DNA of 64,000 nucleotides from Escherichia coli (GTDB lineage: Bacteria > Pseudomonadota > Gammaproteobacteria > Enterobacterales > Enterobacteriaceae): assembly GCF_003018255.1 (NCBI RefSeq), contig NZ_CP027440.1. One strand, written 5' to 3'. The translations under genes and the position numbers were made by a program. The notes under the pieces are model-generated. The model had not been told where the DNA came from. It did no database searches and worked only from the letters and a program-made list of their open reading frames with translations. Shown here in pieces: positions 2,119 to 54,571 of the stretch; position 1 is the stretch's first letter, and each line of letters opens with the position of its first letter.

Positions 2119-4074
2119 TTATATTATCACTCCATTGCCCGCCTCTTCTGATGGCGGGCTTTTTTTCGGCGCTCTCTTGCGTGGCGAATCCTTTTTCTTC
2201 CCTTCTCCACCGCCGGGAGCCATTATTCCCCGAAACTGCCTTACCGACGTGCGCTTTGCCTGATCAATCAACTGGTACAATGTCCCCACCAGCGGCTGCA
2301 TAAAGTCCTGATAGCGACACTGCTTTTCGCTGATTTGCGTCAGCACCGATTCCCAGTGCGCGGTCATGTCCGGTCGCGTCGCCATTTCTGGCAGCGAATG
2401 GAATAGCGCTTTTCCGGCGTCGGTGGAGTGGATATAGCGCCCTTTTTTGGTCAGGAAGCCTCGCTTGAACAGCAGTTCAATAATCCCGGCGCGAGTCGCT
2501 TCTGTCCCCAGACCATCGGTCGCACGAAGGATCTTTTTCAGATCTTTGTCCTGCACAAAACGTGCTATCCCGGTCATCGCTGAAAGCAGTGTTGCATCGG
2601 TAAAATGGCGCGGCGGCTGGGTTTGCCGCTCTACCACTTCACCTTTTTCACACAGCAACTCATCGCCTTTCGCCACCACAGGCAGCGGCGTGCCGTCGTT
2701 TTCTTCATCGCGCTCTTTGCTGCCTAACAGTGTGCGCCAGCCTGCTTCAGCAAGAAAACGGGCTTTAGCGACAAATTTGCCTTTGGCAATGTCCAGTTCG
2801 ATAACACACTTGCGGAACACCGCATCCGGGCAGAACTGCATCAAATACTGACGGGCAATCAGGTTATAGACCTTCGCTTCGTTCTCCGTCAGGTTGATCG
2901 CAGAACTCCGTGCGGTCGGGATGATGGCGTGGTGCGCATCGACTTTTTTGTCATCCCAACAGCGGTTGCGTATATCTGGATCGACCACTGGCTGCGGCAA
3001 CAGATCTGGTGCATGAACGCTGATAGCATTCATCACCGCGTGGCGTCCGGCAAAATGTTCTTCTGGCAAATAGCGGCAATCGGAACGCGGATAAGTGATT
3101 AGCTTGTGCGTTTCGTACAGCTTCTGGCAGATATCAAGCACGTTCTGCGCGCTCAGACCAAAACGTTTAGCCGCTTCAATCTGCAACGCCGAAAGCGAAA
3201 AAGGCAGCGGCGCGGATTCTGATTCCCGTTTATCGTTATAGCTGGTGACAATAGCTGGTTGACCACTAATGCGGTTAACCACATGCTCCGCCAGTGGACG
3301 ATGTAATAAGCGCCCTTCTTCATCCTGGTACGGTTCACACGCTTCGCTCGGTTGCCAGATAGCGGTAAACCGCTCATCGGCAGGTGTCACGATATGTGCT
3401 TTGACTTCAAAGAAGTCTTTCGCCACGAAGTTTTCAATCTCTTCGTCGCGGCGCACCACCAGTCCGAGTACGGGCGTCTGCACGCGTCCCACGGAAAGCA
3501 CGCCCTGATAACCGGCATTGCGACCGAGAATGGTATACGCACGGGTCATATTAATGCCGTACAGCCAGTCAGCTCGCGCACGCGCCAGTGCAGAAACGCA
3601 CAGCGGTACAAACTCGCTATTGGAGCGAAGACGATCGATCGCCCGCTCAACCGCCTGCGGGTTCAGGTCGTTTATCAAACAACGCTGTACCTGCTGGCGC
3701 TTTTCCGGTGCCAGTTGCAGGTAGTCCAGCACTTCATCCACCAGCAGTTGCCCTTCGCGATCCGGGTCTCCGGCGTGAACGATTTCGCTGGCTTCATGCA
3801 GGAAGCGTTTGATGACATTAAGTTGTTTAGTCACGGAGGGTCGGGGCTGTAATTGCCACTTTTCCGGGACAATCGGCAAATCCGCAAGATTCCAGCGCGC
3901 ATAGCGGCTGTCGTAGGCGTCTGGCTGCGCCTGCTCAAGCAGGTGACCGATACACCAGGTCACCACCTGACCATTACCGCACTCGATAAAGCCATCGCCT
4001 TTCCGGTGCGGTTTAGGCAGGACATCAGCAATGGCGCGCGCCAGACTCGGTTTTTCGGCAATAAACAACCGCAT
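2119..4074 (-). CDS. topB: DNA topoisomerase III
   Basis: Track ORF 2119..4131; start placed at internal [10 protein letters not shown] (recalled TopB N-terminus), giving 651 aa; Toprim/topo IA motifs; lysine/arginine-rich C-terminal tail. Confidence 0.92.
2137..2166 (+). terminator. Rho-independent terminator downstream of gdhA (lies inside the 3' end of the topB ORF)
   Basis: gcccgcc-tcttctgat-ggcgggc followed by TTTTTTT. Confidence 0.65.
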
Positions 4075-4078
4075 TGAA

Positions 4079-5122
4079 TTAACGGATCTCAACCATGGCA
4101 CGACCGCCGCGCGCTGGCACCAGTTCGCCAATCGCCGTCAGTTCAATGCCAAACTCGGCGGCTGTAGCTTTGACCTCATTTTCTGCTTCCGGCATGACCG
4201 CCAGCAGCAAACCGCCAGAAGTTTGCGGATCGCACAGCAGTTCGCGCACTTCACGCGGCATTTCACCCATCAGATGACCGTAGCTGGCAAAGTTACGTTC
4301 GGTGCCGCCAGGCACTGCGCCCAACTTAATGTACTCTTCAACCCCCGGCAATTTCGGGATCGCGTCATAGTCGACGCGCGCCTGCACACCTGCGCCCTGA
4401 CACATTTCGCTTAAATGCCCCAGTAAACCAAAACCCGTAACGTCGGTCATCGCTTTTACGCCTTCGATGTTGGCAAAGGACGCGCCTGCGATGTTCATCC
4501 GGCACATCACTTCCGTCGCCAGTCCCTGATGTTCTGGTTTCAGCAGTGATTTTTTCTCAGCCGTGGTAAGAACGCCAATCCCCAGAGGTTTCGTCAGGAA
4601 CAGTTTGCATCCGGCTTGTGCGGTACTGTTTTTCTTCACCCGCTCGGTAGGTACGATCCCCGTTACCGCCAGACCAAAAATCGGCTCCGGCGCATCGATG
4701 GAGTGACCGCCAGCCAGCGCAATACCCGCCTGACGGCATGCATGGCGTCCACCTTCGGTCACTTCGCGGGCAATTTCCGGGGAAAGTTTGTTAATCGGCC
4801 AGCCGAGGATCGCAATCGCCATAATCGGTTTGCCGCCCATTGCGAAGATATCGCTGATGGCGTTAGTCGCCGCAATGCGGCCAAAATCGAAAGGATTATC
4901 AACGATCGGCATAAAGAAGTCGGTGGTGCTGATAACGCTGGTGCCATTGCCCAGATCGTACACCGCCGCATCGTCGCGGGTTTCATTACCCACAAGCAAA
5001 TTCGGATCAACAAACTTCGCCTGCTCACTGTGCAGGATGGTTTCCAACACTTTTGGGGAAATTTTACAGCCGCAACCAGCGCCGTGGCTGTATTGGGTCA
5101 AACGAATCGAGTTCTCGCTCAT
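4079..5122 (-). CDS. selD: Selenide, water dikinase (selenophosphate synthetase)
   Basis: Start at [20 protein letters not shown] (347 aa); stop 5 nt upstream of the topB start, consistent with a selD-topB operon. Confidence 0.95.
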
Positions 5123-5238
5123 GGACATCTCCTGTCAATGCAATCCGGGTATGGTAACCCTCATTCCGTGAAGTGATAAGTGAGAGTGTCTGAATTCCTG
5201 CGCCTTTGCTCACAATCCAGACAGTTTCGCGACAATTA

Positions 5239-5790
5239 TCAGAAATAAGTCACAAACGGCGTCGGGTCCGGGACGTTTATCGACGTAGATGCTTTCAACT
5301 GCGGCGTACCGAGGTAGAGAAAACCGACAATTTTATCCTGCTCACGGCAACCGAATGCTTCACGCACTACCGGACTTTCAGTTAATGCACCACTGCGCCA
5401 GATGCCGCCAAACCCCTGGGCAACTGCTGCCATTTGCATCGCCATGACCGCGCATCCCGCAGACATTTCCTGTTCCCAGCGCGGGACTTTATGATTTTCT
5501 TCGCATTTCGCCACCACCGTTATGATGAGCGGTGCGCGGAACGGCGCATTACGCGCTTTGTCGATGGCTTTGTTATCACTACCGGCAGCAATCGCCCCCT
5601 GCTCCAGTACGGCGCTGAAACGCTCGCGCCCTTCCCCTTCAATCACAAAGAAATGCCACGGTTGCATGGACTTATGGTCCGGCGCACGCATAGCCGCACG
5701 CAGGATGTTTTGCAGTTGTTCACCCGTTGGCGCAGGTTCAGCCAGGCGGGAGGCGCTACGGCGATTGATCAATAGTTCGAGTGCATCCAT
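5239..5790 (-). CDS. ydjA: NAD(P)H nitroreductase YdjA
   Basis: Start at [12 protein letters not shown] gives 183 aa; nitroreductase-family sequence. Confidence 0.88.
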
Positions 5791-5950
5791 TTGATTAACT
5801 CCTGTCATGATATTTATTCACAAAATTAACACGAGAGTGGATTTTGTTACAGCCCAGTCCGCAATTCCTGCTGACAAGTGCCGGTTGGGTCATTACGATA
5901 ACCACATCTATTGCGCCTGAAACAGGTGTGACCTTAAGTTGGGAGAATAC

Positions 5951-7807
5951 ATGCGAACCCTTTGGCGATTTATTGCCGGATTTTTTAAATGGACGTGGCG
6001 TCTGCTGAATTTCGTCCGTGAAATGGTACTTAACCTGTTCTTTATTTTTCTCGTGCTGGTTGGTGTGGGGATCTGGATGCAGGTCAGTGGTGGTGATTCG
6101 AAAGAAACGGCCAGTCGTGGCGCACTGCTGCTGGACATTTCTGGTGTGATCGTCGATAAACCCGACAGTTCTCAGCGGTTTAGTAAATTAAGCCGCCAGC
6201 TGCTTGGTGCCAGTTCCGATCGTCTGCAGGAAAACTCACTGTTTGATATCGTCAACACCATTCGCCAGGCGAAGGACGACCGCAATATCACCGGTATTGT
6301 GATGGATCTGAAAAACTTCGCAGGCGGCGACCAGCCGTCTATGCAGTACATCGGCAAAGCTCTGAAAGAGTTTCGTGATAGCGGGAAACCGGTTTATGCC
6401 GTTGGCGAGAACTACAGCCAGGGGCAATATTATCTCGCCAGTTTCGCCAATAAAATTTGGCTGTCTCCGCAAGGCGTGGTTGATCTGCACGGCTTTGCCA
6501 CCAACGGTCTGTACTACAAATCATTACTGGATAAGCTGAAAGTTTCCACCCATGTGTTCCGCGTGGGTACGTATAAATCTGCCGTTGAACCGTTTATTCG
6601 TGATGATATGTCGCCGGCAGCCCGCGAAGCTGACAGCCGCTGGATTGGTGAGCTGTGGCAAAACTATCTGAATACTGTTGCCGCTAACCGGCAGATCCCT
6701 GCTCAGCAGGTATTCCCTGGCGCGCAAGGGTTGCTTGAGGGTTTAACCAAAACCGGTGGCGATACCGCGAAATATGCGCTGGAAAACAAGCTGGTCGATG
6801 CACTGGCATCGAGTGCCGAAATCGAAAAAACTCTGACCAAAGAGTTCGGCTGGAGCAAGACTGATAAAAATTATCGCGCCATCAGTTATTACGATTACGC
6901 ATTGAAAACGCCGGCAGATACCGGTGACAGCATCGGAGTCGTCTTCGCTAATGGCGCAATTATGGATGGCGAGGAAACTCAGGGGAATGTTGGCGGTGAT
7001 ACCACTGCGGCACAAATCCGCGACGCTCGCCTTGACCCGAAAGTGAAAGCGATTGTCCTGCGTGTTAATAGCCCAGGCGGCAGCGTTACCGCGTCTGAAG
7101 TGATTCGCGCTGAACTGGCAGCAGCCCGGGCAGCGGGTAAGCCTGTGGTTGTATCGATGGGCGGCATGGCGGCATCTGGTGGTTACTGGATTTCCACACC
7201 AGCTAATTACATTGTGGCTAACCCCAGCACCCTGACCGGTTCTATCGGTATCTTCGGCGTGATCACCACCGTAGAAAATAGTCTGGATTCGATTGGTGTT
7301 CATACTGATGGTGTCTCAACTTCACCGCTGGCGGATGTTTCTATCACCAGAGCACTGCCGCCGGAAGCGCAGCAGATGATGCAGTTAAGCATTGAGAATG
7401 GCTATAAACGCTTTATCACGCTGGTTGCTGATGCGCGTCATTCAACGCCAGAGCAGATTGATAAAATCGCCCAGGGCCATGTCTGGACCGGTCAGGATGC
7501 AAAAGCTAACGGGCTGGTCGATAGTCTCGGGGATTTCGATGATGCGGTCGCCAAAGCAGCAGAGCTGGCAAAAGTGAAACAGTGGCATCTGGAATACTAC
7601 GTTGATGAACCGACCTTCTTCGACAAAGTGATGGACAACATGTCTGGTTCTGTCCGGGCAATGTTGCCAGATGCGTTCCAGGCCATGTTACCTGCACCGC
7701 TGGCCTCGGTAGCCTCTACCGTTAAAAGTGAAAGCGACAAGCTGGCAGCGTTTAACGACCCACAAAACCGTTATGCGTTTTGCCTGACCTGCGCCAACGT
7801 GCGTTAA
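5951..7807 (+). CDS. sppA: Signal peptide peptidase A (protease IV)
   Basis: Start at [12 protein letters not shown] gives 618 aa; tandem S49 peptidase domains. Confidence 0.95.
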
Positions 7808-7971
7808 GTCTTGTACTGAGTGGCCGACAGATCGTCGGCCACATTTTTTTACCTCGACGAATCCTCTTCCCGCTGTCTCGCCCCATATTTCCTTATCCGC
7901 ATAGTATCAGGTGCGCTCCCCCTTCCTCACGTATATACTTTTGCTCTTTCGATATCATTCATATCAATATC

Positions 7972-8988
7972 ATGCAAAAGAAATCAATTTACGTCGCCTA
8001 CACGGGCGGGACCATCGGGATGCAGCGTTCCGAGCAGGGTTATATTCCGGTGTCAGGTCATCTACAGCGCCAACTGGCGCTGATGCCGGAATTCCATCGC
8101 CCGGAGATGCCAGATTTCACTATTCATGAATATACGCCATTGATGGATTCTTCTGATATGACGCCAGAAGACTGGCAGCATATTGCTGAAGATATTAAAG
8201 CGCACTATGACGACTATGATGGTTTTGTCATTCTGCACGGCACAGACACGATGGCGTATACCGCCTCTGCACTGTCGTTCATGCTCGAGAATCTCGGTAA
8301 ACCGGTCATTGTGACAGGGTCACAAATCCCGCTGGCTGAGTTACGCTCTGACGGACAAATTAATCTGCTGAATGCGTTGTACGTTGCGGCGAATTATCCT
8401 ATCAACGAAGTAACTCTCTTTTTTAATAATCGACTGTATCGTGGCAACAGAACCACCAAAGCCCATGCCGATGGTTTTGATGCGTTTGCCTCTCCAAACC
8501 TTCCTCCGTTACTGGAAGCAGGTATCCATATTCGCCGTTTGAATACGCCACCCGCCCCGCACGGTGAAGGGGAATTGATCGTTCATCCAATCACGCCGCA
8601 ACCAATTGGCGTAGTGACGATTTATCCGGGGATTTCTGCTGACGTCGTGCGCAATTTTCTGCGCCAACCTGTGAAAGCATTGATTCTGCGCTCATATGGC
8701 GTGGGTAATGCGCCACAAAACAAAGCCTTCCTGCAGGAATTACAAGAAGCCAGCGATCGCGGTATTGTGGTGGTCAACCTGACACAATGTATGTCCGGTA
8801 AAGTGAACATGGGTGGTTATGCCACCGGTAACGCCCTCGCCCATGCCGGCGTTATTGGCGGTGCAGATATGACTGTAGAAGCCACGCTAACCAAACTGCA
8901 TTACCTGCTTAGCCAGGAACTTGATACTGAAACCATTCGCAAGGCCATGAGCCAAAACCTGCGTGGCGAACTGACGCCGGATGATTAA
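7972..8988 (+). CDS. ansA: Cytoplasmic L-asparaginase I
   Basis: Start at MQKKSIYVAYTGGTIGM gives 338 aa; asparaginase TGGTIG motif. Confidence 0.95.
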   Translation: MQKKSIYVAYTGGTIGMQRSEQGYIPVSGHLQRQLALMPEFHRPEMPDFTIHEYTPLMDSSDMTPEDWQHIAEDIKAHYDDYDGFVILHGTDTMAYTASALSFMLENLGKPVIVTGSQIPLAELRSDGQINLLNALYVAANYPINEVTLFFNNRLYRGNRTTKAHADGFDAFASPNLPPLLEAGIHIRRLNTPPAPHGEGELIVHPITPQPIGVVTIYPGISADVVRNFLRQPVKALILRSYGVGNAPQNKAFLQELQEASDRGIVVVNLTQCMSGKVNMGGYATGNALAHAGVIGGADMTVEATLTKLHYLLSQELDTETIRKAMSQNLRGELTPDD

Positions 8989-8998
8989 GGAGACTGCA

Positions 8999-9640
8999 AT
9001 GCACCCTCGCGCCCTGTTACTGGTCGATTTACAAAATGATTTCTGTGCTGGTGGCGCGCTCGCCGTGCCGGAAGGTGACAGTACGGTGGATGTCGCTAAC
9101 CGCCTGATTGACTGGTGCCAGTCGCGCGGTGAAGCGGTTATCGCCAGTCAGGACTGGCACCCGGCGAATCACGGCAGTTTTGCCAGTCAGCACGGTGTAG
9201 AGCCTTATACGCCAGGCCAACTCGACGGTTTGCCACAAACCTTCTGGCCAGATCACTGTGTGCAGAACAGTGAAGGCGCACAATTACATCCGTTACTGAA
9301 CCAAAAAGCGATCGCAGCGGTGTTCCATAAAGGCGAAAATCCTTTAGTTGACAGTTACAGTGCCTTTTTTGATAACGGCCGTCGGCAGAAAACCACGCTC
9401 GATGACTGGTTACGCGATCATGAAATCGATGAATTGATCATTATGGGTCTGGCTACTGACTATTGCGTGAAGTTTACCGTGCTGGACGCGTTACAGTTAG
9501 GTTATAAGGTTAATGTGATTACCGATGGTTGTCGTGGCGTGAATATCCAGCCACAGGACAGTGCGCACGCGTTTATGGAGATGTCAGCAGCTGGGGCAAC
9601 GCTATATACGCTGGCAGATTGGGAAGAGACGCAGGAGTAA
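8999..9640 (+). CDS. pncA: Nicotinamidase/pyrazinamidase
   Basis: Start at MHPRALLLVDLQNDFC gives 213 aa; isochorismatase-fold catalytic residues. Confidence 0.92.
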   Translation: MHPRALLLVDLQNDFCAGGALAVPEGDSTVDVANRLIDWCQSRGEAVIASQDWHPANHGSFASQHGVEPYTPGQLDGLPQTFWPDHCVQNSEGAQLHPLLNQKAIAAVFHKGENPLVDSYSAFFDNGRRQKTTLDDWLRDHEIDELIIMGLATDYCVKFTVLDALQLGYKVNVITDGCRGVNIQPQDSAHAFMEMSAAGATLYTLADWEETQE

Positions 9641-9660
9641 TATTAGTTGGATTCATCTCT

Positions 9661-9691
9661 GGCCTACATTTCCTCAATGACATTGTAGGCC
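9661..9691. other. Inverted repeat (8-bp stem GGCCTACA / TGTAGGCC, 15-nt loop) in the pncA-yeaC junction
   Basis: Read directly from ggcctacatttcctcaatgacattgtaggcc; no T-run follows, so not a canonical terminator. Confidence 0.3.
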
Positions 9692-9800
9692 AGGTAATAC
9701 TTGTTAGTGTTGCATTTAACCTACTCGCAGCTAAAACACGACATCCGAACAAGTCTATTTGCCCTCCCTTAATAACAGGCTTAAATACTAGACAACTCAT

Positions 9801-10073
9801 TCACTTAAACATGGCAATAGGCTTTGCTGAGATACCAAAATCTTCTTTTAACTGTTGTTTGCTCTTCATGACCATCTGACCATTTGTGTCAATTGTCATA
9901 TGCTGTGCTTCGGTATTATTACGGGCTTGCCACAGCATCACCAGTTGCAGGCAGTTCTCTTTTTGTTCCTCGGTCAACGCAACGCCATCAGGCCATTTCC
10001 CCAGTTCAACGGCGGTCGACAAACGCTGGTATACCTCAGGCGTCATGCTGTTGATAATGTCATCAAGATTCAT
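9801..10073 (-). CDS. yeaC: DUF1315 protein YeaC
   Basis: Start at MNLDDIINSMTPEVYQRL gives 90 aa; directly downstream of msrB. Confidence 0.85.
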   Translation of the reverse strand: MNLDDIINSMTPEVYQRLSTAVELGKWPDGVALTEEQKENCLQLVMLWQARNNTEAQHMTIDTNGQMVMKSKQQLKEDFGISAKPIAMFK

Positions 10074-10114
10074 AATTTTTCCGCTCCTGTGGAATAAGTT
10101 GCTGAATCGTTTTT

Positions 10115-10528
10115 TCAACCGTTGATTTCTTCGCCGTTTTCGCCATCGGTAAAGCGTAAAGAGGCAGAGTTAACACAATAACGTTCGCCCGTTGGCTGCG
10201 GCCCGTCGGGGAAGACATGCCCCAGATGGGCATCACAGTTACCGCAACGAATTTCTATGCGCTGCATTCCATGTGACAAGTCTTTGATATAACAAATAGA
10301 TTCTTCACTCACCGGTTCGTAGAAACTGGGCCAGCCACAGCCGGAATCATACTTGGTTTGGGAATGAAACAGCGGGGCATCGCAGATCAAACAGTGATAT
10401 ACGCCGTCACGCTTGTTATGCAGTAAACGACCCGTAAATGGCGGTTCTGTCCCATGATTCTGCGTCACGTAGAACTGCATCTCGGACAAATTTTTTTTCA
10501 GTTCTTCTGCCGAAGGTTTATTAGCCAT
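10115..10528 (-). CDS. msrB: Peptide methionine-(R)-S-oxide reductase MsrB
   Basis: Start at [12 protein letters not shown] gives 137 aa; two CxxC zinc pairs and catalytic C-terminal Cys region. Confidence 0.93.
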
Positions 10529-10798
10529 TTGCTCACATCTCACTTTAATCGTGCTCACATTACGTGACTGATTCTAACAAAACATTAACACCAACTGGCA
10601 AAATTTTGTCCTAAACTTGATCTCGACGAAATGGCTGCACCTAAATCGTGATGAAAATCACATTTTTATCGTAATTGCCCTTTAAAATTCGGGGCGCCGA
10701 CCCCATGTGGTCTCAAGCCCAAAGGAAGAGTGAGGCGAGTCAGTCGCGTAATGCTTAGGCACAGGATTGATTTGTCGCAATGATTGACACGATTCCGC

Positions 10799-10826
10799 TT
10801 GACGCTGCGTAAGGTTTTTGTAATTT
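10799..10826 (+). promoter_or_regulatory. Candidate gapA sigma70 promoter (-35 TTGACG, 16-nt spacer, -10 TAATTT)
   Basis: Hexamers read directly about 45 nt upstream of the gapA ATG; gapA is known to have multiple promoters, exact assignment not verified. Confidence 0.4.
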
Positions 10827-10857
10827 TACAGGCAACCTTTTATTCACTAACAAATAG

Positions 10858-11865
<1,008 letters not shown>

Positions 11866-11887
11866 GTTGAGATGACACTGTGATCTA

Positions 11888-11917
11888 AAAAGAGCGACTT
11901 CGGTCGCTCTTTTTTTT
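11888..11917 (+). terminator. Rho-independent terminator of gapA
   Basis: agagcgac-ttcg-gtcgctct followed by TTTTTTT. Confidence 0.8.
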
Positions 11918-11948
11918 ACCTGATAAAATGAAGTTAAAGGACTGCGTC

Positions 11949-12833
11949 ATGATTAAGAAAATTTTTGCCCTTCCGGTCATCGAACAAATCTCCCCTGTCC
12001 TCTCCCGTCGTAAACTGGATGAACTGGACCTCATTGTGGTCGATCATCCCCAGGTAAAAGCCTCTTTTGCATTACAGGGCGCACACCTTCTCTCATGGAA
12101 ACCTGCGGGTGAAGAAGAAGTTCTGTGGTTGAGCAATAACACACCGTTCAAAAATGGCGTCGCTATTCGCGGTGGCGTACCGGTTTGCTGGCCGTGGTTT
12201 GGTCCGGCTGCACAACAAGGTCTGCCTGCGCACGGTTTTGCCCGCAACCTGCCGTGGACGCTGAAATCACATCGTGAAGATGCTGATGGCGTAGCGCTGA
12301 CTTTTGAATTGACACAAAGCGAAGAGACGAAAAAATTCTGGCCACACGACTTTAAGCTATTAGCGCATTTCCGCGTGGGTAAAGCCTGTGAAATCGATCT
12401 TGAAGCACACGGCGAATTTGAAACCACCTCTGCCCTGCATACCTACTTTAACGTGGGTGATATCACTAAGGTAAGCGTCAGTGGACTGGGCGATCGCTTC
12501 ATTGATAAAGTGAATGACGCGAAAGAAGATGTACTGACCGACGGTATTCAGACCTTCCCTGACCGTACCGATCGCGTGTATCTGAATCCGCAAGATTGCA
12601 GCGTGATTAATGACGAAGCGCTGAATCGTATTATCGCCGTAGGCCACCAGCATCATCTGAACGTTGTAGGCTGGAACCCAGGACCGGCGCTTTCAGTTAG
12701 CATGGGCGATATGCCGGATGATGGCTACAAGACCTTTGTTTGTGTAGAAACAGCTTACGCCTCAGAAACGCAAAAAGTCACCAAAGAGAAACCTGCACAT
12801 CTGGCGCAATCCATTCGCGTTGCGAAACGTTAA
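11949..12833 (+). CDS. yeaD: Glucose-6-phosphate 1-epimerase (aldose 1-epimerase family) YeaD
   Basis: Start at MIKKIFALPVIEQ gives 294 aa. Confidence 0.88.
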   Translation: MIKKIFALPVIEQISPVLSRRKLDELDLIVVDHPQVKASFALQGAHLLSWKPAGEEEVLWLSNNTPFKNGVAIRGGVPVCWPWFGPAAQQGLPAHGFARNLPWTLKSHREDADGVALTFELTQSEETKKFWPHDFKLLAHFRVGKACEIDLEAHGEFETTSALHTYFNVGDITKVSVSGLGDRFIDKVNDAKEDVLTDGIQTFPDRTDRVYLNPQDCSVINDEALNRIIAVGHQHHLNVVGWNPGPALSVSMGDMPDDGYKTFVCVETAYASETQKVTKEKPAHLAQSIRVAKR

Positions 12834-12883
12834 TTTGCGTTAATGTTGTGTGCCGGGTGCGATGCATCCGGCACGTATCAACA

Positions 12884-13737
12884 TCACACCATATCCAGCG
12901 CAGTTTTTCCTTTTGGTGCCGGATATGCCTTATCCAGCATAGCTAATTCCGCTGATGAAAGTTCGACCTCAAGCACAGCCGCATTTTGTTGGACATGGGT
13001 AATCGTGGCCGCTTTTGGAATCGCCATCACACCCTGATGGCTGATTACCCACGCCAACAATACTTGTGCCGCGCTGATATTGTGAGCATGTGCAATTTCG
13101 TTGACTACCGCGTTTTTTAACAGCCCATTGCGCAACCGCCCGGCCTGGGCTAACGGACTGTAAGCCATCACCGGCATCTGCTGTTTCTGGCACCAGGGAA
13201 GTAGATCGTACTCAATCCCTCGTGAACCGAGATGGTAAAGCACCTGATTAGTGGCACACTGATTCCCCCCGGCAGCTGCCAGAGTTCCTGCATATCGGCA
13301 TAATCAAGGTTAGAAACGCCCCAGCGGCGGATTTTTCCCTGGGCGATCAATTTTTCCATCGCTGCGACAGTCTCTTCAAAAGCGAAACTGCCAGACCAGT
13401 GTAATAAGTAGAGATCGAGATAATCAGTATTGAGACGGCGTAAACTGGCTTCGCATGCATTTATCGCTTTTTGCCCGCCAGCATTCCACGGATAGACTTT
13501 AGAGACGAGAAAGACGTTCTCACGCAGGCCGGTTAATGCTTCCCCAACCACCATTTCGGCACCGCCATCGGCATACATTTCGGCGGTATCAATGAGGGTT
13601 AAACCGAGTTCAATGCCCGCGCGTAGTGCAGCAACTTCTGTTTTACGCTGACTGGCATCTTCGCCCATATACCATGTTCCCTGCCCTATGGCTGGCAGTG
13701 AGACATCGCCACTAAATTGAATCATTTTTTGTTGCAT
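12884..13737 (-). pseudogene. yeaE: Aldo-keto reductase YeaE, disrupted by a frameshift (or sequencing error) in a C6/G6 homopolymer
   Basis: Two adjacent minus-strand ORFs in different frames (13168..13782 and 12884..13243) together cover one roughly 284-aa AKR; frames switch at the homopolymer at 13265-13270. Confidence 0.7.
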
Positions 13738-13826
13738 TGCTTCCTCCCAGGTATTGCACCACCGTAATGCAAAACAGGGCATGACGCCCTGTTTTTATGC
13801 ACAAAATGCCCTGGAAAAATGCATTA

Positions 13827-14573
13827 TCAGAATTTGTAGGTGATCCCGGTAGAAATCAGGCCAGTCCAGGATTTATCCACCATTGGGCTGTCAGTAACTT
13901 CATCAGACAGACGGGTGTAGCGCGCGGTACCGTAAACACTCCAGTCACCGAGGAAGTTGTAGCTGGCGCTCAGCTCCAGGTAAGGGCTCCAGCTGTCGTT
14001 CGGGTTATAGCCACGCAGACCGCTGCGAGCGGACTCTTTGCGCGATACGCCATAATAGTATTCGTTCTGGTTTTCGCTGTTCCACTGCACACCAATACCC
14101 GGAGTCACGGTCAGGCCACCGTTGGTGTAACGATACAACCAGGCCATATCCCAGACGATGCCGTTGCTGTTATCCAGGGTATCGCCAGCCAGGGTGGTAC
14201 GCAGGTAACCGTACTGGGTAAAGTGAGCATAAGACAGACCAGCCATCATGGTGCTCTTACGGTCATCCAGGTGACGCATTTGGTGATCGCCACTGTCTTT
14301 AGCTTTGAAGTAAAGCGGCGACCAGTAAGCGGTAATTGAAAGTTTGTCCGTTGCGTCATTCCACAGGTAGTAACCACCACCTAAGCCACGGAACCAGAAG
14401 TTATCGCCGTCATAGTTGATTACCGGTACTGGGTAAACATCGGTATCGTAATCTTTATATGGGTGTTCAACGACACCTACGCCTGCGCCCAGGGAAAATT
14501 TACCTTCAGCGTGCGCTACGCCTGCAGACGTTGCGATAAGCACTCCAAGTGCCAGAAGTTTGAGTTTGGTCAC
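13827..14573 (-). CDS. mipA: MltA-interacting outer-membrane protein MipA
   Basis: 248-aa ORF with signal peptide and C-terminal aromatic residue (beta-barrel OMP style). Confidence 0.92.
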   Translation of the reverse strand: MTKLKLLALGVLIATSAGVAHAEGKFSLGAGVGVVEHPYKDYDTDVYPVPVINYDGDNFWFRGLGGGYYLWNDATDKLSITAYWSPLYFKAKDSGDHQMRHLDDRKSTMMAGLSYAHFTQYGYLRTTLAGDTLDNSNGIVWDMAWLYRYTNGGLTVTPGIGVQWNSENQNEYYYGVSRKESARSGLRGYNPNDSWSPYLELSASYNFLGDWSVYGTARYTRLSDEVTDSPMVDKSWTGLISTGITYKF

Positions 14574-15008
14574 AATTAATCATTCCTTAAACAAATGTTT
14601 AGCGGGCGACAAAGTTTACCCGTCAATACATCGAAACCCAACCTTTTTACGTTTTCATTTTTTATAGTAACTGTTTAATTTTCCTGACGCAGATGACACC
14701 ACTCTTACAGCCAAATGAATTTAGCGTTACTGGCGACCCTGGTCTTTACATTAATTATGCAAAATTTATGGATGAGTTGTTGATATGCCATTGAAATTAA
14801 GAAAGCCGTGCAGGCAAGTTTTCCATTTGCCATCTACGCTTAATTTTGAAGGTGTATCACCGGGCACGTTGTTCTCATCGTCGATAAAATGGCATGAGAG
14901 TTGCTGTGTTTTAGCAAGAGACGTCGTTCAGTTTACCTCTTCCGGGAGCCTCTACTATTCATATGAACGGCTCTTAACCTGTGCTAAAAAACGAAAGGAC
15001 GGCATACC

Positions 15009-16943
15009 ATGAATATATTCGATCACTATCGCCAGCGATATGAAGCTGCCAAGGACGAAGAGTTCACACTGCAGGAGTTTCTTACCACTTGTCGGCAAGA
15101 TCGCAGTGCTTATGCCAACGCGGCTGAGCGGCTATTGATGGCTATCGGTGAGCCTGTCATGGTCGATACAGCCCTGGAACCCAGACTTTCTCGACTCTTT
15201 TCTAACCGGGTCATTGCACGTTATCCGGCGTTTGAAGAGTTTTACGGCATGGAAGACGCGATTGAACAGATTGTCTCTTATCTGAAACACGCGGCTCAGG
15301 GGCTGGAAGAGAAGAAACAAATTCTGTATCTGCTGGGGCCTGTGGGTGGGGGTAAATCATCGCTTGCTGAGCGACTGAAATCATTAATGCAGCTCGTACC
15401 GATTTATGTATTGAGCGCCAACGGTGAGCGTAGCCCGGTCAACGATCATCCGTTCTGTCTTTTCAATCCGCAGGAAGATGCGCAGATTCTGGAAAAAGAG
15501 TATGGCATTCCTCGCCGTTATCTCGGCACCATCATGTCGCCGTGGGCGGCAAAACGCCTGCATGAATTTGGTGGCGATATCACTAAGTTCCGGGTAGTGA
15601 AGGTCTGGCCGTCAATTCTGCAACAAATTGCTATCGCCAAAACGGAACCCGGTGATGAGAACAACCAGGACATCTCCGCGCTGGTTGGGAAAGTCGATAT
15701 TCGTAAACTCGAACACTACGCGCAGAATGACCCGGACGCCTACGGCTATTCCGGTGCATTGTGCCGCGCCAACCAGGGGATCATGGAATTCGTTGAGATG
15801 TTTAAAGCACCGATTAAAGTGCTGCATCCCTTGCTAACCGCCACTCAGGAAGGTAACTACAACGGGACGGAAGGTATCTCCGCCCTGCCGTTCAACGGGA
15901 TTATTCTCGCCCACTCGAACGAATCCGAATGGGTCACTTTCCGTAATAACAAAAACAACGAAGCCTTCCTCGATCGTGTTTACATCGTGAAGGTGCCGTA
16001 TTGCTTGCGCATTTCCGAAGAGATCAAAATCTACGAGAAATTGCTTAATCACAGTGAATTGACTCACGCCCCCTGCGCCCCTGGCACGCTGGAAACGCTG
16101 TCACGTTTTTCCATTCTTTCGCGCCTTAAAGAGCCAGAAAACTCCAGCATTTATTCAAAGATGCGGGTTTATGATGGCGAAAGTCTGAAAGACACAGATC
16201 CCAAAGCCAAGTCGTATCAGGAATATCGTGACTACGCCGGTGTCGATGAAGGGATGAACGGTCTGTCGACGCGTTTTGCGTTTAAGATCCTCTCCCGCGT
16301 GTTCAACTTCGATCATGTAGAAGTGGCGGCAAACCCGGTTCATCTGTTCTACGTCCTGGAACAGCAGATCGAGCGCGAGCAGTTCCCGCAAGAACAGGCA
16401 GAACGCTATCTGGAGTTCCTGAAAGGTTATCTGATCCCGAAATATGCCGAGTTTATCGGCAAAGAGATCCAGACGGCCTACCTTGAATCCTATTCCGAAT
16501 ATGGGCAAAACATTTTCGACCGTTATGTTACCTACGCGGATTTCTGGATTCAGGATCAGGAGTATCGCGATCCTGATACCGGGCAGTTGTTTGACCGCGA
16601 GTCTCTTAACGCCGAGCTGGAGAAAATCGAGAAACCGGCGGGGATCAGTAATCCAAAAGATTTCCGCAACGAGATTGTTAACTTCGTACTGCGCGCCAGA
16701 GCGAATAACAGCGGACGCAATCCGAACTGGACCAGCTATGAAAAACTGCGCACGGTTATTGAGAAGAAAATGTTCTCCAATACCGAGGAGCTGTTGCCGG
16801 TTATTTCGTTTAACGCCAAAACGTCAACCGACGAGCAGAAGAAACATGACGACTTTGTCGACCGTATGATGGAAAAAGGCTACACCCGTAAACAGGTGCG
16901 TTTACTGTGCGAATGGTATTTGCGCGTACGTAAATCGTCTTAA
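15009..16943 (+). CDS. yeaG: PrkA-family serine protein kinase YeaG
   Basis: 644-aa ORF with Walker A GPVGGGKSS. Confidence 0.95.
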   Translation: MNIFDHYRQRYEAAKDEEFTLQEFLTTCRQDRSAYANAAERLLMAIGEPVMVDTALEPRLSRLFSNRVIARYPAFEEFYGMEDAIEQIVSYLKHAAQGLEEKKQILYLLGPVGGGKSSLAERLKSLMQLVPIYVLSANGERSPVNDHPFCLFNPQEDAQILEKEYGIPRRYLGTIMSPWAAKRLHEFGGDITKFRVVKVWPSILQQIAIAKTEPGDENNQDISALVGKVDIRKLEHYAQNDPDAYGYSGALCRANQGIMEFVEMFKAPIKVLHPLLTATQEGNYNGTEGISALPFNGIILAHSNESEWVTFRNNKNNEAFLDRVYIVKVPYCLRISEEIKIYEKLLNHSELTHAPCAPGTLETLSRFSILSRLKEPENSSIYSKMRVYDGESLKDTDPKAKSYQEYRDYAGVDEGMNGLSTRFAFKILSRVFNFDHVEVAANPVHLFYVLEQQIEREQFPQEQAERYLEFLKGYLIPKYAEFIGKEIQTAYLESYSEYGQNIFDRYVTYADFWIQDQEYRDPDTGQLFDRESLNAELEKIEKPAGISNPKDFRNEIVNFVLRARANNSGRNPNWTSYEKLRTVIEKKMFSNTEELLPVISFNAKTSTDEQKKHDDFVDRMMEKGYTRKQVRLLCEWYLRVRKSS

Positions 16944-17043
16944 CAACCCTGGCCCGGTACACATGCTACCGGGCCTACAACGACAGCGAACCGTGGGCCA
17001 GAGAAGCGGCAACACAGGCGTAGCATAAAGTTGGCAAATGTAG

Positions 17044-18339
<1,296 letters not shown>

Positions 18340-18344
18340 AACTG

Positions 18345-18376
18345 TCAGCCGGGTCATTATCGCCTGGCTGATTTTT
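18345..18376 (+). terminator. Possible terminator after yeaH
   Basis: tcagcc...ggctga stem followed by TTTTT; loop is long, so weak. Confidence 0.35.
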
Positions 18377-18485
18377 AGTTCACTGTAAATTATCTCATTT
18401 ATTACATACATTAGCTTACAATCGCTTTAAATATGACAGCATAACCTTTACACAATTTAGTTCCAGAAAACAATCATTCGGAAAA

Positions 18486-19961
18486 ATGATTCGGTCAACA
18501 CGTATTTCCCTGGGGTTATTCTTTAATTATTTTTTATCGTTAACGAAAATTGATCCTGGTCAAAACTATATATCTCTGCCATCAATAAAATCCAGCACTC
18601 ACATTGCTCTCCTTTTTATGGCTTCTATGGGTACACAAAAATTAAAAGCTCAAGGCTTTTTTATTTTCAGCTTATTGCTGACGTTAATTTTATTTTGCAT
18701 TACTACCTTATATAACGAAAACACGAATGTAAAACTCATCCCACAGATGAATTACCTGATGGTTGTTGTGGCTTTGTTTTTCCTTAACGCCGTCATTTTC
18801 CTTTTCATGTTAATGAAGTATTTCACTAACAAACAAATTTTACCAACACTCATTTTAAGCCTTGCATTTTTAAGTGGCCTTATCTATTTAGTTGAAACCA
18901 TTGTAATTATCCATAAACCAATCAACGGCAGTACACTGATCCAGACAAAGTCGAATGATGTTTCTATTTTCTATATTTTCCGCCAACTCAGTTTCATTTG
19001 TTTAACCTCGCTGGCGCTCTTTTGTTATGGGAAAGACAACATCCTTGACAACAATAAGAAGAAAACTGGCATTCTGTTGCTGGCGCTGATTCCTTTTTTA
19101 GTTTTTCCCCTTCTGGCACACAATCTGAGCAGTTATAACGCTGACTATTCTTTGTATGTCGTCGATTACTGTCCGGACAACCATACTGCGACCTGGGGAA
19201 TCAACTATACAAAAATATTGGTTTGTTTGTGGGCATTTTTACTGTTCTTTATTATCATGCGTACACGATTAGCCAGCGAACTATGGCCGTTAATAGCATT
19301 ATTATGTCTGGCATCGCTATGCTGCAACTTACTTCTACTGACTCTGGATGAGTATAATTACACCATCTGGTATATCAGTCGCGGGATTGAAGTTTCCAGT
19401 AAACTGTTTGTTGTGTCTTTTCTGATTTATAACATTTTTCAGGAACTGCAACTCTCCAGCAAACTGGCAGTTCATGATGTACTGACCAATATTTATAATC
19501 GGCGCTACTTTTTCAACAGCGTAGAGTCATTATTGTCGCGACCTGTTGTTAAGGACTTTTGTGTCATGCTGGTTGATATTAATCAGTTCAAACGCATCAA
19601 TGCCCAATGGGGACATCGTGTGGGTGATAAAGTGCTGGTATCAATTGTCGATATTATCCAGCAAAGCATCCGCCCCGATGATATTTTAGCGCGACTGGAG
19701 GGTGAGGTGTTTGGCTTGCTATTTACCGAACTCAATAGTGCCCAGGCAAAAATCATTGCGGAACGTATGCGTAAAAATGTCGAACTCCTGACCGGCTTTA
19801 GTAACAGATATGATGTTCCTGAGCAAATGACCATCAGTATTGGCACGGTTTTTTCAACGGGTGACACACGTAATATCTCGCTTGTCATGACGGAAGCAGA
19901 TCAAGCCTTACGCGAAGCGAAAAGCGAGGGGGGCAACAAAGTGATTATTCATCATATTTAA
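18486..19961 (+). CDS. yeaI: Membrane-anchored GGDEF-domain protein with degenerate active site (EGEVF)
   Basis: 491-aa ORF; AT-rich multi-TM N-terminal half; GGDEF fold with the signature replaced by EGEVF at 19698-19712. N-terminal start not independently verified. Confidence 0.85.
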   Translation: MIRSTRISLGLFFNYFLSLTKIDPGQNYISLPSIKSSTHIALLFMASMGTQKLKAQGFFIFSLLLTLILFCITTLYNENTNVKLIPQMNYLMVVVALFFLNAVIFLFMLMKYFTNKQILPTLILSLAFLSGLIYLVETIVIIHKPINGSTLIQTKSNDVSIFYIFRQLSFICLTSLALFCYGKDNILDNNKKKTGILLLALIPFLVFPLLAHNLSSYNADYSLYVVDYCPDNHTATWGINYTKILVCLWAFLLFFIIMRTRLASELWPLIALLCLASLCCNLLLLTLDEYNYTIWYISRGIEVSSKLFVVSFLIYNIFQELQLSSKLAVHDVLTNIYNRRYFFNSVESLLSRPVVKDFCVMLVDINQFKRINAQWGHRVGDKVLVSIVDIIQQSIRPDDILARLEGEVFGLLFTELNSAQAKIIAERMRKNVELLTGFSNRYDVPEQMTISIGTVFSTGDTRNISLVMTEADQALREAKSEGGNKVIIHHI

Positions 19962-20141
19962 GTGCAAAAATATTCAGAGCCATGCTTTTTGCGTGGCTTT
20001 TGCATACAATTTATTACTATTACCCCTAAATTTCCCCTCCCCAGCGGCGCAGAGATGAGTATAATTAGCGCCCCTGTGCCAGGCCGCAATCGAACTTTAT
20101 CTGGTTTTCTCGTTTCACTAACCGAAGGAGTGCCATTTATC

Positions 20142-21632
20142 ATGAAATTGCACCATAGAATGCTCCGGCATTTTATCGCCGCAAGTGTCATTGTGCTGAC
20201 ATCTTCCTTCCTTATTTTTGAACTTGTCGCCAGCGACAGAGCAATGAGTGCCTATCTGCGCTATATCGTGCAGAGAGCAGACTCCTCCTTTCTTTATGAT
20301 AAGTATCAGAATCAGAGTATTGCCGCGCATGTGATGCGCGCTCTCGCTGCTGAGCAGTCGGAAGTGTCGCCAGAACAGCGGCGCGCCATCTGCGAGGCTT
20401 TTGAGTCTGCCAATAATACCCATGGCTTAAACCTGACTGCCCATAAATACCCGGACTTACGCGGCACACTACAAACCGCATCCACTGACTGCGACACAAT
20501 TGTGGAAGCTGCAGCACTATTACCCGCTTTTGATCAGGCAGTGGAAAGCAACCGCCACCAGGATGATTACGGTTCAGGTCTTGGGATGGCCGAAGAGAAA
20601 TTTCACTATTATCTCGATCTCAATGACCGCTATGTCTATTTTTATGAGCCGGTTAATGTTGAGTACTTTGCGATGAATAACTGGTCTTTCCTGCAGTCAG
20701 GAAGTATTGGCATCGATCGCAAAGATATTGAAAAGGTATTTACCGGGCGTACCGTTTTATCGAGCATTTACCAGGATCAGCGTACTAAACAGAACGTGAT
20801 GAGTTTGCTGACGCCGGTATATGTCGCAGGGCAGCTAAAAGGGATTGTGCTGCTGGATATTAACAAAAACAATCTGCGGAATATCTTTTACACTCATGAC
20901 CGCCCTCTCCTCTGGCGTTTTCTCAATGTCACGCTAACCGATACCGATTCGGGGCGCGACATTATCATCAACCAGAGCGAAGATAATCTGTTCCAGTATG
21001 TCAGTTACGTCCATGACTTACCGGGCGGCATTCGTGTCTCGTTATCCATTGATATTCTTTACTTTATCACGTCTTCGTGGAAAAGCGTTCTGTTCTGGAT
21101 TTTGACGGCGTTAATTTTGCTGAATATGGTGCGGATGCACTTCCGTTTATACCAAAACGTGTCGCGAGAAAATATTAGTGATGCGATGACTGGACTGTAT
21201 AATCGCAAAATTTTAACCCCTGAACTGGAGCAGCGGTTGCAGAAGCTGGTGCAATCCGGTTCTTCGGTGATGTTTATTGCAATTGACATGGACAAGTTAA
21301 AGCAAATAAATGACACCCTCGGTCATCAGGAGGGGGATTTAGCGATTACGTTATTAGCTCAGGCGATTAAACAATCGATTCGTAAAAGTGATTATGCCAT
21401 CCGACTCGGTGGCGATGAATTCTGCATCATTCTTGTCGATTCGACGCCGCAAATTGCAGCACAACTGCCTGAACGTATCGAAAAACGTCTGCAACATATC
21501 GCGCCGCAGAAAGAGATCGGCTTCTCTTCCGGTATTTACGCGATGAAAGAAAACGATACGTTACATGATGCGTATAAAGCTTCCGATGAGCGTTTATATG
21601 TCAATAAGCAGAACAAAAACAGCCGTTCATGA
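20142..21632 (+). CDS. yeaJ: Diguanylate cyclase DgcJ (periplasmic sensor + GGDEF)
   Basis: Start at MKLHHRMLRHF gives 496 aa; intact RLGGDEF motif. Confidence 0.9.
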   Translation: MKLHHRMLRHFIAASVIVLTSSFLIFELVASDRAMSAYLRYIVQRADSSFLYDKYQNQSIAAHVMRALAAEQSEVSPEQRRAICEAFESANNTHGLNLTAHKYPDLRGTLQTASTDCDTIVEAAALLPAFDQAVESNRHQDDYGSGLGMAEEKFHYYLDLNDRYVYFYEPVNVEYFAMNNWSFLQSGSIGIDRKDIEKVFTGRTVLSSIYQDQRTKQNVMSLLTPVYVAGQLKGIVLLDINKNNLRNIFYTHDRPLLWRFLNVTLTDTDSGRDIIINQSEDNLFQYVSYVHDLPGGIRVSLSIDILYFITSSWKSVLFWILTALILLNMVRMHFRLYQNVSRENISDAMTGLYNRKILTPELEQRLQKLVQSGSSVMFIAIDMDKLKQINDTLGHQEGDLAITLLAQAIKQSIRKSDYAIRLGGDEFCIILVDSTPQIAAQLPERIEKRLQHIAPQKEIGFSSGIYAMKENDTLHDAYKASDERLYVNKQNKNSRS

Positions 21633-21674
21633 TAACCTTCTGTGGTTGTTTGCTTGTAATCTCAGGAGCATGAA

Positions 21675-22178
21675 ATGACTGAAATGGCTAAAGGAAGCGT
21701 GACGCATCAGCGGTTAATCGCTTTATTATCACAAGAAGGTGCTGACTTCCGCGTCGTTACCCATGAAGCGGTAGGTAAATGTGAAGCGGTGTCAGAAATT
21801 CGTGGCACCGCTTTAGGCCAGGGGGCTAAGGCACTGGTATGTAAAGTCAAAGGCAATGGTGTAAATCAACATGTTCTGGCGATCCTCGCGGCCGATCAAC
21901 AGGCCGATCTGAGCCAACTCGCCAGCCATATAGGCGGATTACGCGCTTCGTTGGCCAGCCCGGCGGAAGTCGATGAACTCACAGGCTGTGTCTTCGGCGC
22001 GATCCCCCCTTTCAGCTTCCATCCAAAACTCAAACTGGTTGCCGATCCCCTACTCTTCGAACGATTTGATGAAATCGCCTTCAATGCAGGCATGCTGGAT
22101 AAATCCGTTATTTTGAAAACCGCGGATTATTTGCGCATTGCGCAACCAGAACTGGTCAATTTCCGCCGCACTGCGTAA
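21675..22178 (+). CDS. yeaK: YbaK-like aminoacyl-tRNA deacylase YeaK
   Basis: 167-aa ORF of the YbaK/ProX deacylase family. Confidence 0.88.
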   Translation: MTEMAKGSVTHQRLIALLSQEGADFRVVTHEAVGKCEAVSEIRGTALGQGAKALVCKVKGNGVNQHVLAILAADQQADLSQLASHIGGLRASLASPAEVDELTGCVFGAIPPFSFHPKLKLVADPLLFERFDEIAFNAGMLDKSVILKTADYLRIAQPELVNFRRTA

Positions 22179-22283
22179 CTAGCCTGTCCGTTCGATAAGA
22201 AGAACGGACAAAACCAGCACAACAGCAATGGCAAAAAACGATGACGTGATAATCAGTGTCTCGACGAACATTTGATCGTTCAT
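22179..22283 (-). CDS. yoaI: Small membrane protein YoaI (34 aa)
   Basis: Minus-strand ATG..TAG encoding [34 protein letters not shown]; below the ORF-track size cutoff; stop abuts the yeaK stop. Confidence 0.55.
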
Positions 22284-22452
22284 AGTATGCCCCCGGGAGA
22301 TAGTTGTTTTCACGTTATTGTTAGCGTGCGCAAATGGCAGTTTGATGACAGTTCGCCTGATTTTTTATGCAAAAAACGTAAAGATTTTCTACTTCCTTCC
22401 TGCAGCAAGCGTAAAGTAAGCAGGCTTATTATTCTTTGGCAAGGAAACCACG

Positions 22453-22899
22453 ATGTTTGATGTCACTTTGCTGATCCTGCTCGGGTTAGCTGCGCTGGGC
22501 TTTATCAGTCATAACACCACTGTCGCCGTTTCAATTCTGGTGTTAATCATTGTCCGCGTCACACCGTTAAGCACCTTTTTCCCGTGGATTGAAAAACAGG
22601 GGCTAAGTATCGGGATAATCATTCTGACGATTGGCGTTATGGCTCCCATCGCCAGCGGGACGCTACCGCCCTCAACCCTGATTCACTCGTTTCTGAACTG
22701 GAAATCGCTGGTGGCAATTGCAGTCGGCGTTATTGTCTCCTGGCTGGGGGGGCGCGGCGTGACGTTAATGGGCAGCCAGCCGCAACTGGTCGCCGGGCTG
22801 CTGGTGGGCACTGTTTTGGGCGTGGCGCTGTTTCGCGGCGTACCGGTTGGCCCGCTTATTGCCGCGGGTCTGGTTTCGCTGATTGTGGGGAAACAGTAG
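22453..22899 (+). CDS. yeaL: UPF0756 inner-membrane protein YeaL
   Basis: 148-aa hydrophobic ORF. Confidence 0.88.
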
Positions 22900-23677
22900 T
22901 TAATCCCGCAATATATCGGCCTGGCGTTTGCCCCAGGCCTTTCTTAAACATAGTAATAAAGGCCGTTGTTGAATCATACCCCAGCGTATGAGCAACTTTC
23001 TGTACAGTATCGCCTTTCACTAATCCCTGAAGCGCCATAATCAGCTGTAACTGCTGACGCCACTGGCGAAAACTCACCCCCGTCTCTTTCACTATCAGTC
23101 GGGCAAGATTGCGTTCACTCATCGCAAAAAAGCGAGCCCATTGCCCCAATGACCCCCACTCGACGGGCTCTTTCGCCATCATCTCCACCATCGCGCGGAT
23201 TTTAGGATGAGAAGAAACGGGTAGGTGCAGCTGTTGTTGTGGCTGCTGAGGGAGTTCATCAAACAGGACCTGAATTAATCTGCGGGTCATCGGCTCAGCA
23301 CGCTGAGTCGTCGTCCTGTTTGCCAGGGTTAAAATTAATTCCCGGCATAAGGGCGATATTTTCAATGTGCAACAGGTTGTCGGCATTGTCACTGCGCTGG
23401 GTTCGATAAACAGAAAACAGAGTTCAGCGTTAGCTGTCACTTGATTGCTATGTTCCACCCCTCCCGGTATCCAAACCGCATATTGTGGCGGCACCATCCA
23501 CAAAGCATTTTCCACCGTACAGGTAATTGCACCATGTAGTGCCAGTATCAACTGTCCTTTGCGGTGCTGATGTACAGGACTGGTTAACTCATCCGTTCCG
23601 GCGTGAATACAAAATGCGACCGCGGCTTCATGGTGTCGGTCGGGTTCATAGCCATTGAGATTCAACCTGTGCATCAT
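22856..23677 (-). CDS. nimR: AraC-family regulator NimR (YeaM)
   Basis: 273-aa ORF with cupin-like N-terminus and C-terminal AraC HTH; 3' end overlaps yeaL by 44 nt. Confidence 0.88.
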
Positions 23678-23773
23678 TTTGTCCGAATTTAGCGATAATT
23701 TGTCATTTTAGCTTGATTCAACATAACAATAAAAACGGTAAGGTACAGCCTCGTTTGTAACAATGAGAAGCAT

Positions 23774-24955: not shown

Positions 24956-25009
24956 TATCCGGTGCTATAGTGACGTGGCAAATCATGCGTGAAAGGGAGA
25001 ACAAATACG

Positions 25010-25357: not shown

Positions 25358-25378
25358 TTTTAGTACGCCATCCGGCAG

Positions 25379-25633: not shown

Positions 25634-25815
25634 TTATTGATCTCACATATTTATCCAGACTTAGAGTATCGCGGTATCGTTTTGTTTTGCAGCACTATTT
25701 TTATTACATTCACTCAAATCATATTACGCCTTGTTTCATCTTTGTTGATGATGTTTTATCATGCCTGCAAAGATTAAATAATCAGCATTTACCCGCCGTA
25801 TCCTGGAGTTGTTTC

Positions 25816-26841: not shown

Positions 26842-26873
26842 GGCGTATTCACATCCTTTTGATTGGTGATAAC

Positions 26874-53764: not shown

Positions 53765-53900
53765 GTTAAGGTTGCGCCCTCATTTGGGGAGTAGCCGATT
53801 TCCAGATTCCGGAAATGTACGTGTCAACATACTCGTTGCAAAACGTGGCACGTACGGACTGAACACTTTCAGTCAGGCGAGACCATATGCACATCAATCG
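53765..53900 (+). ncRNA. yybP-ykoY-type manganese riboswitch in the mntP leader
   Basis: Contains UUUGGGGAGUAG and GGCGAGACCA-like segments typical of the yybP-ykoY motif within the 5' leader of mntP. Confidence 0.55.
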
Positions 53901-54004
53901 CTATGCCTGCATGAACGCGAAAACCATCGCGGTTTGTCGTTCATGTATGCATGTTTGCTGGGGGCGATGATGTGTTTTATGGATACCCCGGTCAGGACGT
54001 TGTC

Positions 54005-54571
54005 ATGAATATCACTGCTACTATTCTTCTTGCGTTTGGTATGTCGATGGATGCATTTGCTGCATCAATCGGTAAAGGTGCCACCCTCCATAAACCGAAA
54101 TTTTCTGAAGCGTTGCGAACCGGCCTTATTTTTGGTGCTGTCGAAACCCTGACGCCGCTGATCGGCTGGGGAATGGGCATGTTAGCCAGCCGGTTTGTCC
54201 TTGAATGGAACCACTGGATTGCGTTTGTGCTGCTGATATTCCTCGGCGGGCGAATGATTATTGAGGGTTTTCGTGGCGCAGATGATGAAGATGAAGAGCC
54301 GCGCCGTCGACACGGTTTCTGGCTACTGGTAACCACCGCGATTGCCACCAGCCTGGATGCCATGGCTGTGGGTGTTGGTCTTGCTTTCCTTCAGGTCAAC
54401 ATTATCGCGACCGCATTGGCCATTGGTTGTGCAACCTTGATTATGTCGACATTAGGGATGATGGTTGGTCGCTTTATCGGCTCAATTATTGGGAAAAAAG
54501 CGGAAATTCTCGGCGGGCTGGTGCTGATCGGCATCGGCGTCCAGATCCTCTGGACGCACTTCCACGGTTAA
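54005..54571 (+). CDS. mntP: Manganese efflux pump MntP
   Basis: Start at [19 protein letters not shown] gives 188 aa. Confidence 0.9.

Follow-up and report, generated by a model that had tools for sequence, protein, structure and literature searches.

In the E. coli DNA that we analysed (a stretch of 64,000 nucleotides, hereafter the window), the aldo-keto reductase gene yeaE lacks one G in a poly-G tract, which leaves the gene a single nucleotide short and places its two parts in different reading frames. We regard this loss as probably a real loss-of-function mutation produced by replication slippage, recent and private to the strain.

A single-base deletion splits yeaE

The gene occupies positions 12884..13737 of the minus strand, where it measures 854 nt, as opposed to 855 nt in intact orthologues. 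Alignment to yeaE of IAI39 and SMS-3-5 contained one gap, of one nucleotide, in line with the first-pass annotation, which had described the gene as split by a frameshift in a poly-G/C tract. The coding strand at the lesion reads ...CTG GCA GCT GCC GGGGGG AATCAG..., corresponding to a run of six Cs on the plus strand at 13265-13270, exactly where that annotation had placed it (tract form G6A2). The 6-nt homopolymer described at the time is thus present, but it represents the mutated state of the tract, the ancestral state in this allele being G7; the alignment to reference yeaE and the tract count that had been proposed as a check gave G7 in IAI39 and SMS-3-5 versus G6 here.

Translated from the ATG at 13737, the 5' reading frame (13168..13737, minus strand) encodes 189 residues: 158 that are wild type, running through ...ELWQLPGG up to Gly158, and 31 that are out of frame (ISVPLIRCFTISVHEGLSTIYFPGARNSRCR), followed by a premature stop in the shifted frame at 13168..13170 (minus strand), which appears both in the translation and in the ORF list. 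The rest of the gene, codons 159-284 (12884..13264, minus strand), is open in the original frame, which passes uninterrupted across the tract (...AAAGGNQCATNQVLYHLG... in translation) as far as the normal stop; this part includes the AIPKA motif and the last part of the barrel. The short out-of-frame tail and the continuation of the second frame through the junction had both been recognised earlier, and the translations agree. Likewise, the two minus-strand ORFs from which the split had been deduced, 13168..13782 and 12884..13243, are both in the ORF list, the start at 13782 being a mechanical upstream extension of the true yeaE start, the ATG at 13737. The division into 156 and 127 codons, on the other hand, has to be amended to 158 and 126 residues, since GGA still codes for Gly158 and the wild-type stretch accordingly extends to residue 158 rather than 156.

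When one G was inserted into the tract, the result was a continuous protein of 284 aa, as had been anticipated, and it matched the database entry 'methylglyoxal reductase YeaE' letter for letter. With a length difference that is not a multiple of three and a stop 31 shifted codons on, the locus has the makeup of a frameshift pseudogene. The exact 189-aa product was found on at least 23 public contigs, and exact look-ups of the fragment proteins returned matches in other lineages only.

The designation of the gene draws on alignment, protein match, Pfam and gene order. The Pfam family PF00248 (Aldo_ket_red) covers residues 17-272 of the repaired protein (E=6.7e-56); among solved structures, 6cia and 4wgh come closest to that protein (E about 1e-125). 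Nucleotide identity to yeaE of IAI39 is 99.5%. The gene order mipA (13827..14573), yeaE, yeaD (11949..12833, plus strand, convergent with yeaE) agrees with annotated genomes, placing the gene at the orthologous position. Because the Pfam match, the exact protein match and this gene order concur, we identify the gene as yeaE. Intact YeaE of E. coli K-12 (b1781), an NADPH-dependent methylglyoxal/glyoxal reductase, is encoded at the same locus and in the same gene order; compared with it, the reading frame in the window is broken after residue 158. We take D50, Y55, K80 and H113, read off the translation from family motifs, to be the catalytic tetrad of the aldo-keto reductases (AKRs); all four lie in the 5' fragment. 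AIPKA presumably represents the cofactor-binding IPK[S/A] motif and is encoded in the 3' frame only, so that, with residues assigned by family knowledge, the tetrad and the C-terminal cofactor motif do not occur in one polypeptide.

Upstream of yeaE, a terminator-like hairpin follows mipA (13771..13791, minus strand; CAGGGC-GTCAT-GCCCTG, then TTTT). It was read directly off the sequence and is absent from the consensus scan list; its position suggests that yeaE has its own transcription start or depends on read-through.

The deletion lies in a G7-type allele

Intact E. coli yeaE exists in two synonymous forms at the tract, GGG GGG AAT (G7A2, as in IAI39 and SMS-3-5) and GGG GGA AAT (G6A3, as in JNE23-011). 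The window's gene differs from the IAI39 allele at 4 positions, namely the gap and three 3' SNPs, and from the JNE23-011 allele at 20. Looking up the repaired protein by exact match led to L025 (GCA_029307295.1), plus 22 similar places, and yeaE was intact in all 24 contigs read that carry this exact protein. L025 is 99.966% identical to window positions 2885..23737 over 20,855 nt; its tract is G7 and its 284-aa gene is intact. Apart from the yeaE tract, it differs from the window by two SNPs and by a small compound change in the spacer between msrB and gapA. Among complete RefSeq E. coli genomes, none was more than 99.7% identical to the window over the flanks.

These comparisons assign the window's allele to the G7A2 (IAI39-like) type, with a private G7-to-G6 deletion; we consider the loss of one G private to the window sequence because a relative as close as L025 retains G7 and an intact gene. 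We also considered the loss of an A from the G6A3 form, as found in JNE23-011, the nearest complete genome over the flanks, and rejected it, given the 20 differences from that allele versus 4 from IAI39 and the G7 of L025. A reading of the three downstream SNPs as decay following inactivation was likewise rejected, as these SNPs also occur in intact genes, including that of L025. As a separate observation, the yeaE allele looks mosaic, with a 5' part of the IAI39 type and 3' SNPs common to another allele type.

Tract length changes recur across E. coli assemblies

The yeaE region was present in all 5425 of the 5425 complete RefSeq E. coli genomes matched. We counted tract lengths in those complete RefSeq genomes that carry the window's exact 37-nt and 35-nt flanks: the gene was intact in the 349 genomes with G7A2 and the 1084 with G6A3, and frameshifted in the five with G6A2, the six with G5A3 and the single genome with G8A2. 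Altered tract lengths were therefore seen in 12 of about 1445 identical-flank complete genomes, or about 0.8%.

The same lesion already carries a pseudogene annotation in other genomes of E. coli: NCBI PGAP labels yeaE 'frameshifted' in all five G6A2 complete genomes, i.e., E686 (NZ_CP049198.1), CLSC36 (NZ_CP041300.1), 98210 (NZ_CP173528.1), UID2309220007 (NZ_CM142668.1) and GMF054 (NZ_CM183924.1). These pseudogenes resemble that of the window in the 80 nt around the lesion, which are identical, in their 854-nt gene and in their 189-aa and 94-aa fragments. They differ from it in belonging to other alleles with other flanks, counting 9-13 differences within the gene and 19-40 over 2 kb; on this evidence, the five RefSeq frameshifts are events independent of the window's. 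When read-archive assemblies were considered together with RefSeq, the G6A2 lesion was found on at least 6 distinct 2-kb sequence backgrounds, and the same background with the frameshift was seen in runs with SRR and with ERR accession prefixes. Two prefixes probably mean different projects, which fits real, inherited mutations. Moreover, G6 is found again in assemblies in which the neighbouring genes are intact.

Public assemblies carrying an E686-like allele (L042-L051) presented tracts of G5, G6, G7, G8 and G9, with G8 in several separate runs. Error-rich assemblies, in which mipA, yeaD and gapA are fragmented too, had the tract collapsed to G4 or G5. The 94-aa C-terminal fragment was found on more than 1000 contigs, and we considered whether these represent one yeaE-null lineage; this was rejected, as the fragment stems from many different lesions, partly in error-rich assemblies.

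In E. coli mutation accumulation experiments, the indel rate rises with homopolymer length, and G:C runs of 7-8 nt are hot spots (PMC8510543). The yeaE change, an indel of one base within a G:C run of 7 nt, is of the type seen at the slippage hot spots of the Foster laboratory (PMC8510543), whose data were obtained with laboratory lines, most of them deficient in mismatch repair; the window is from a natural isolate. The pattern of tract lengths thus marks the yeaE tract as a recurrent hotspot, for biological slippage and base-calling error alike. A literature search on yeaE pseudogenes or frameshifts returned nothing specific.

Real mutation or sequencing error

Homopolymer runs are typically called too short by long-read, 454 and Ion Torrent platforms. 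The main rival explanation is an artefact of sequencing or assembly, by which one G went missing from the consensus of a strain whose yeaE is really intact, with a G7 tract. We consider this possible, if on balance unlikely. The lesion is private, with L025 and the 24 contigs bearing the exact repaired protein all intact, and base-calling or assembly errors classically take just this form, a 1-nt change in a 7-nt G/C run that is private to one sequence. The tract is also mis-sized, to G4 or G5, in assemblies whose neighbouring genes are shattered. More generally, assembly errors inflate bacterial pseudogene counts, and many purported bacterial pseudogenes are assembly artefacts (PMC11017572).

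Against this, the window bears no general error signature despite its 77 homopolymers of at least 6 nt, 21 of them of at least 7 nt. Lengths agree with those of relatives at the one other G7 run (22746-22752) and at the 20 A/T runs of at least 7 nt. Of the other full-length named genes in the annotation of the nearest complete genome, all 65 are intact here, which upholds the earlier remark that every other gene was of the expected length. Relative to that genome, five further indels were found, comprising an 18-nt repeat in yeaD, three single-base indels and one IS200. None of the three single-base indels falls within a named gene, and one alters only a 40-aa hypothetical ORF; two were checked and are polymorphisms that also occur in 326 and 8 RefSeq genomes, respectively. 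Across the 64 kb we found no other frameshift and, where a close relative was available, no other private indel. In addition, the recurrence of G6 beside intact neighbours and in runs with different accession prefixes means that the mutation does arise naturally. We favour a real mutation because the 65 other genes are intact and because no second private indel accompanies the lesion where a close relative allows the comparison.

Phase variation and recoding

Of the three readings offered in the first-pass annotation, the pseudogene and the sequencing error are retained here, while the phase-variable slip fares poorly, the tract being interrupted (G6A3) in 1084 identical-flank genomes versus 349 with G7A2. 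A broad version of this idea holds that the G7-type tract is a hypermutable, incipient contingency locus, through which the reductase might be lost and regained depending on the niche, with the window as an 'off' variant; we regard this as highly doubtful. In a stricter version, which we consider very improbable, the poly-G tract would be a contingency switch that turns yeaE on and off reversibly within populations. The spread from G5 to G9 within one allele type in public assemblies speaks for such a switch, as does the presence of both gains and losses among the RefSeq complete genomes. The simple-sequence contingency loci known from Neisseria, Haemophilus and Campylobacter likewise have genes set on or off by poly-G tract length, which differs among isolates.

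Unlike those loci, however, yeaE has a short tract that is not conserved, its off-length alleles are rare, its product is a cytoplasmic, housekeeping-type reductase without a known surface or host-interaction role, and its variation is known between assemblies. Known contingency loci usually have 8 or more repeats, and a long repeat tract conserved species-wide is not what we found at yeaE. The excess of the interrupted form over G7A2 argues against selection for slipperiness, and the absence of the change from the nearest relative suggests a recent event. Since the tract is short, is interrupted in most same-flank genomes and is rarely of an off length, evolved phase variation is poorly supported.

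Recoding, by which full-length YeaE would be made from the mutant mRNA through a -1 ribosomal slip on G_GGG_GGA or through transcriptional slippage, is extremely improbable. The heptamer G_GGG_GGA does fit the pattern X_XXZ_ZZN in the 0 frame, and a -1 slip on it would restore ...LPGGNQ.... Nevertheless, folding of the 83 nt downstream was no stronger than that of shuffled sequence (z = -0.72), and the two-frame arrangement is not conserved, close relatives having one continuous ORF; neither a stimulatory structure downstream nor a conserved split was thus found. Transcriptional slippage in E. coli, for its part, generally needs longer A/T runs. Motif efficiencies published for E. coli point the same way: G_GG.G_GG.N is absent from the 18 motifs that exceed 0.10% frameshifting without a stimulator, and G_GG.G_GG.U, at 0.018%, has the lowest value reported (PMC4066793). 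On these efficiencies and the unremarkable downstream fold, ribosomal rescue was rejected.

We likewise rejected a structured RNA or a regulatory element overlapping the lesion, since the Rfam gathering-threshold scan of the whole window gave no family there and the promoter and terminator scan gave no signal above chance nearby.

Predicted consequences of the lesion

Returning to the favoured reading of a real mutation, replication slippage would have taken one G out of the G7 that spans codons Gly157-Gly158 of an IAI39-type yeaE allele. A ribosome translating the mutant mRNA would add 158 correct residues and then 31 wrong ones before it reached the stop. About 44% of the (alpha/beta)8 barrel would be missing from the truncated product, the presumed C-terminal cofactor-binding region with it. 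Should the mutation be real, the allele would almost certainly be null and the truncated protein presumably inactive. Because the next gene past yeaE is the convergent yeaD, effects on downstream genes are not expected.

E. coli has five aldo-keto reductases that act on glyoxal or methylglyoxal, YeaE among them, and YqhD and glyoxalase I contribute too (PMC5297802). With four other such aldo-keto reductases, YqhD and glyoxalase I in place, loss of yeaE should be tolerated at a small fitness cost, which fits both the scattered off-length alleles in E. coli and the lesion's absence from the nearest relative. Given the redundancy with other reductases and glyoxalase I, a strong phenotype of the yeaE-null genotype is not expected. 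The lesion is an ordinary single-base homopolymer frameshift in a dispensable, redundant gene, or else a sequencing error, and constitutes no new biological feature.

In practical terms, the appropriate annotation is yeaE pseudogene (frameshifted), with correction of the sequence should the true run be G7; two small reductase genes should not be annotated here. Being a recurrent trouble spot, changed in about 0.8% of same-flank complete genomes, the tract could also serve as a quick check of homopolymer accuracy.

Mosaic relatedness and other differences in the window

Identity between the window and JNE23-011 (NZ_AP045067.1) is mosaic. Genes at ~17056-36298 are essentially 100% identical, identity falls to 96.8-97.8% in yeaD-yeaE (11949-13737), and it is mostly 96-99% for genes beyond ~36380, a distribution that looks like recombination patches. 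Within yeaD, at window position 12201, JNE23-011 has an extra 18-nt tandem copy (GGTCCGGCTGCACAACAA) and encodes 300 aa, compared with the usual 294 aa in the window; the difference is an in-frame repeat-number polymorphism that adjoins the yeaE lesion. In the htpX-prc spacer (window ~61049-61055), JNE23-011 carries IS200C (~700 nt, with tnpA), which the window lacks.

Three single-base differences from JNE23-011 lie elsewhere. At 38863, in the yeaY-tsaB spacer, the window has T5 versus T6, and the T5 form occurs in 8 RefSeq genomes. At 44484 it has one additional G, located after the stop codon of pabB and before the GTG at which nudL starts. At 53924, in the mntP leader (53887..54008), it has CC versus CCC, which breaks the 40-aa hypothetical ORF that overlaps the mntP start; this ORF is probably not a real gene, since the CC form occurs in 326 complete genomes and the ORF is unannotated in the four listed. 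We would expect a yybP-ykoY (manganese) riboswitch upstream of mntP, and the Rfam scan gave no match to that family there. The msrB-gapA spacer (window 10696-10698) has a 4-nt compound difference from L025, one of four points of difference in 20.8 kb; here the change is probably on the L025 side, because the window agrees with JNE23-011.

Over the whole window, only two Rfam matches scored above the gathering score, both on the minus strand: a cspA-type thermoregulator at 55468-55928, which covers a csp gene and the yobF region, and the sRNA sroD at 36336-36421, at the rnd/fadD junction.
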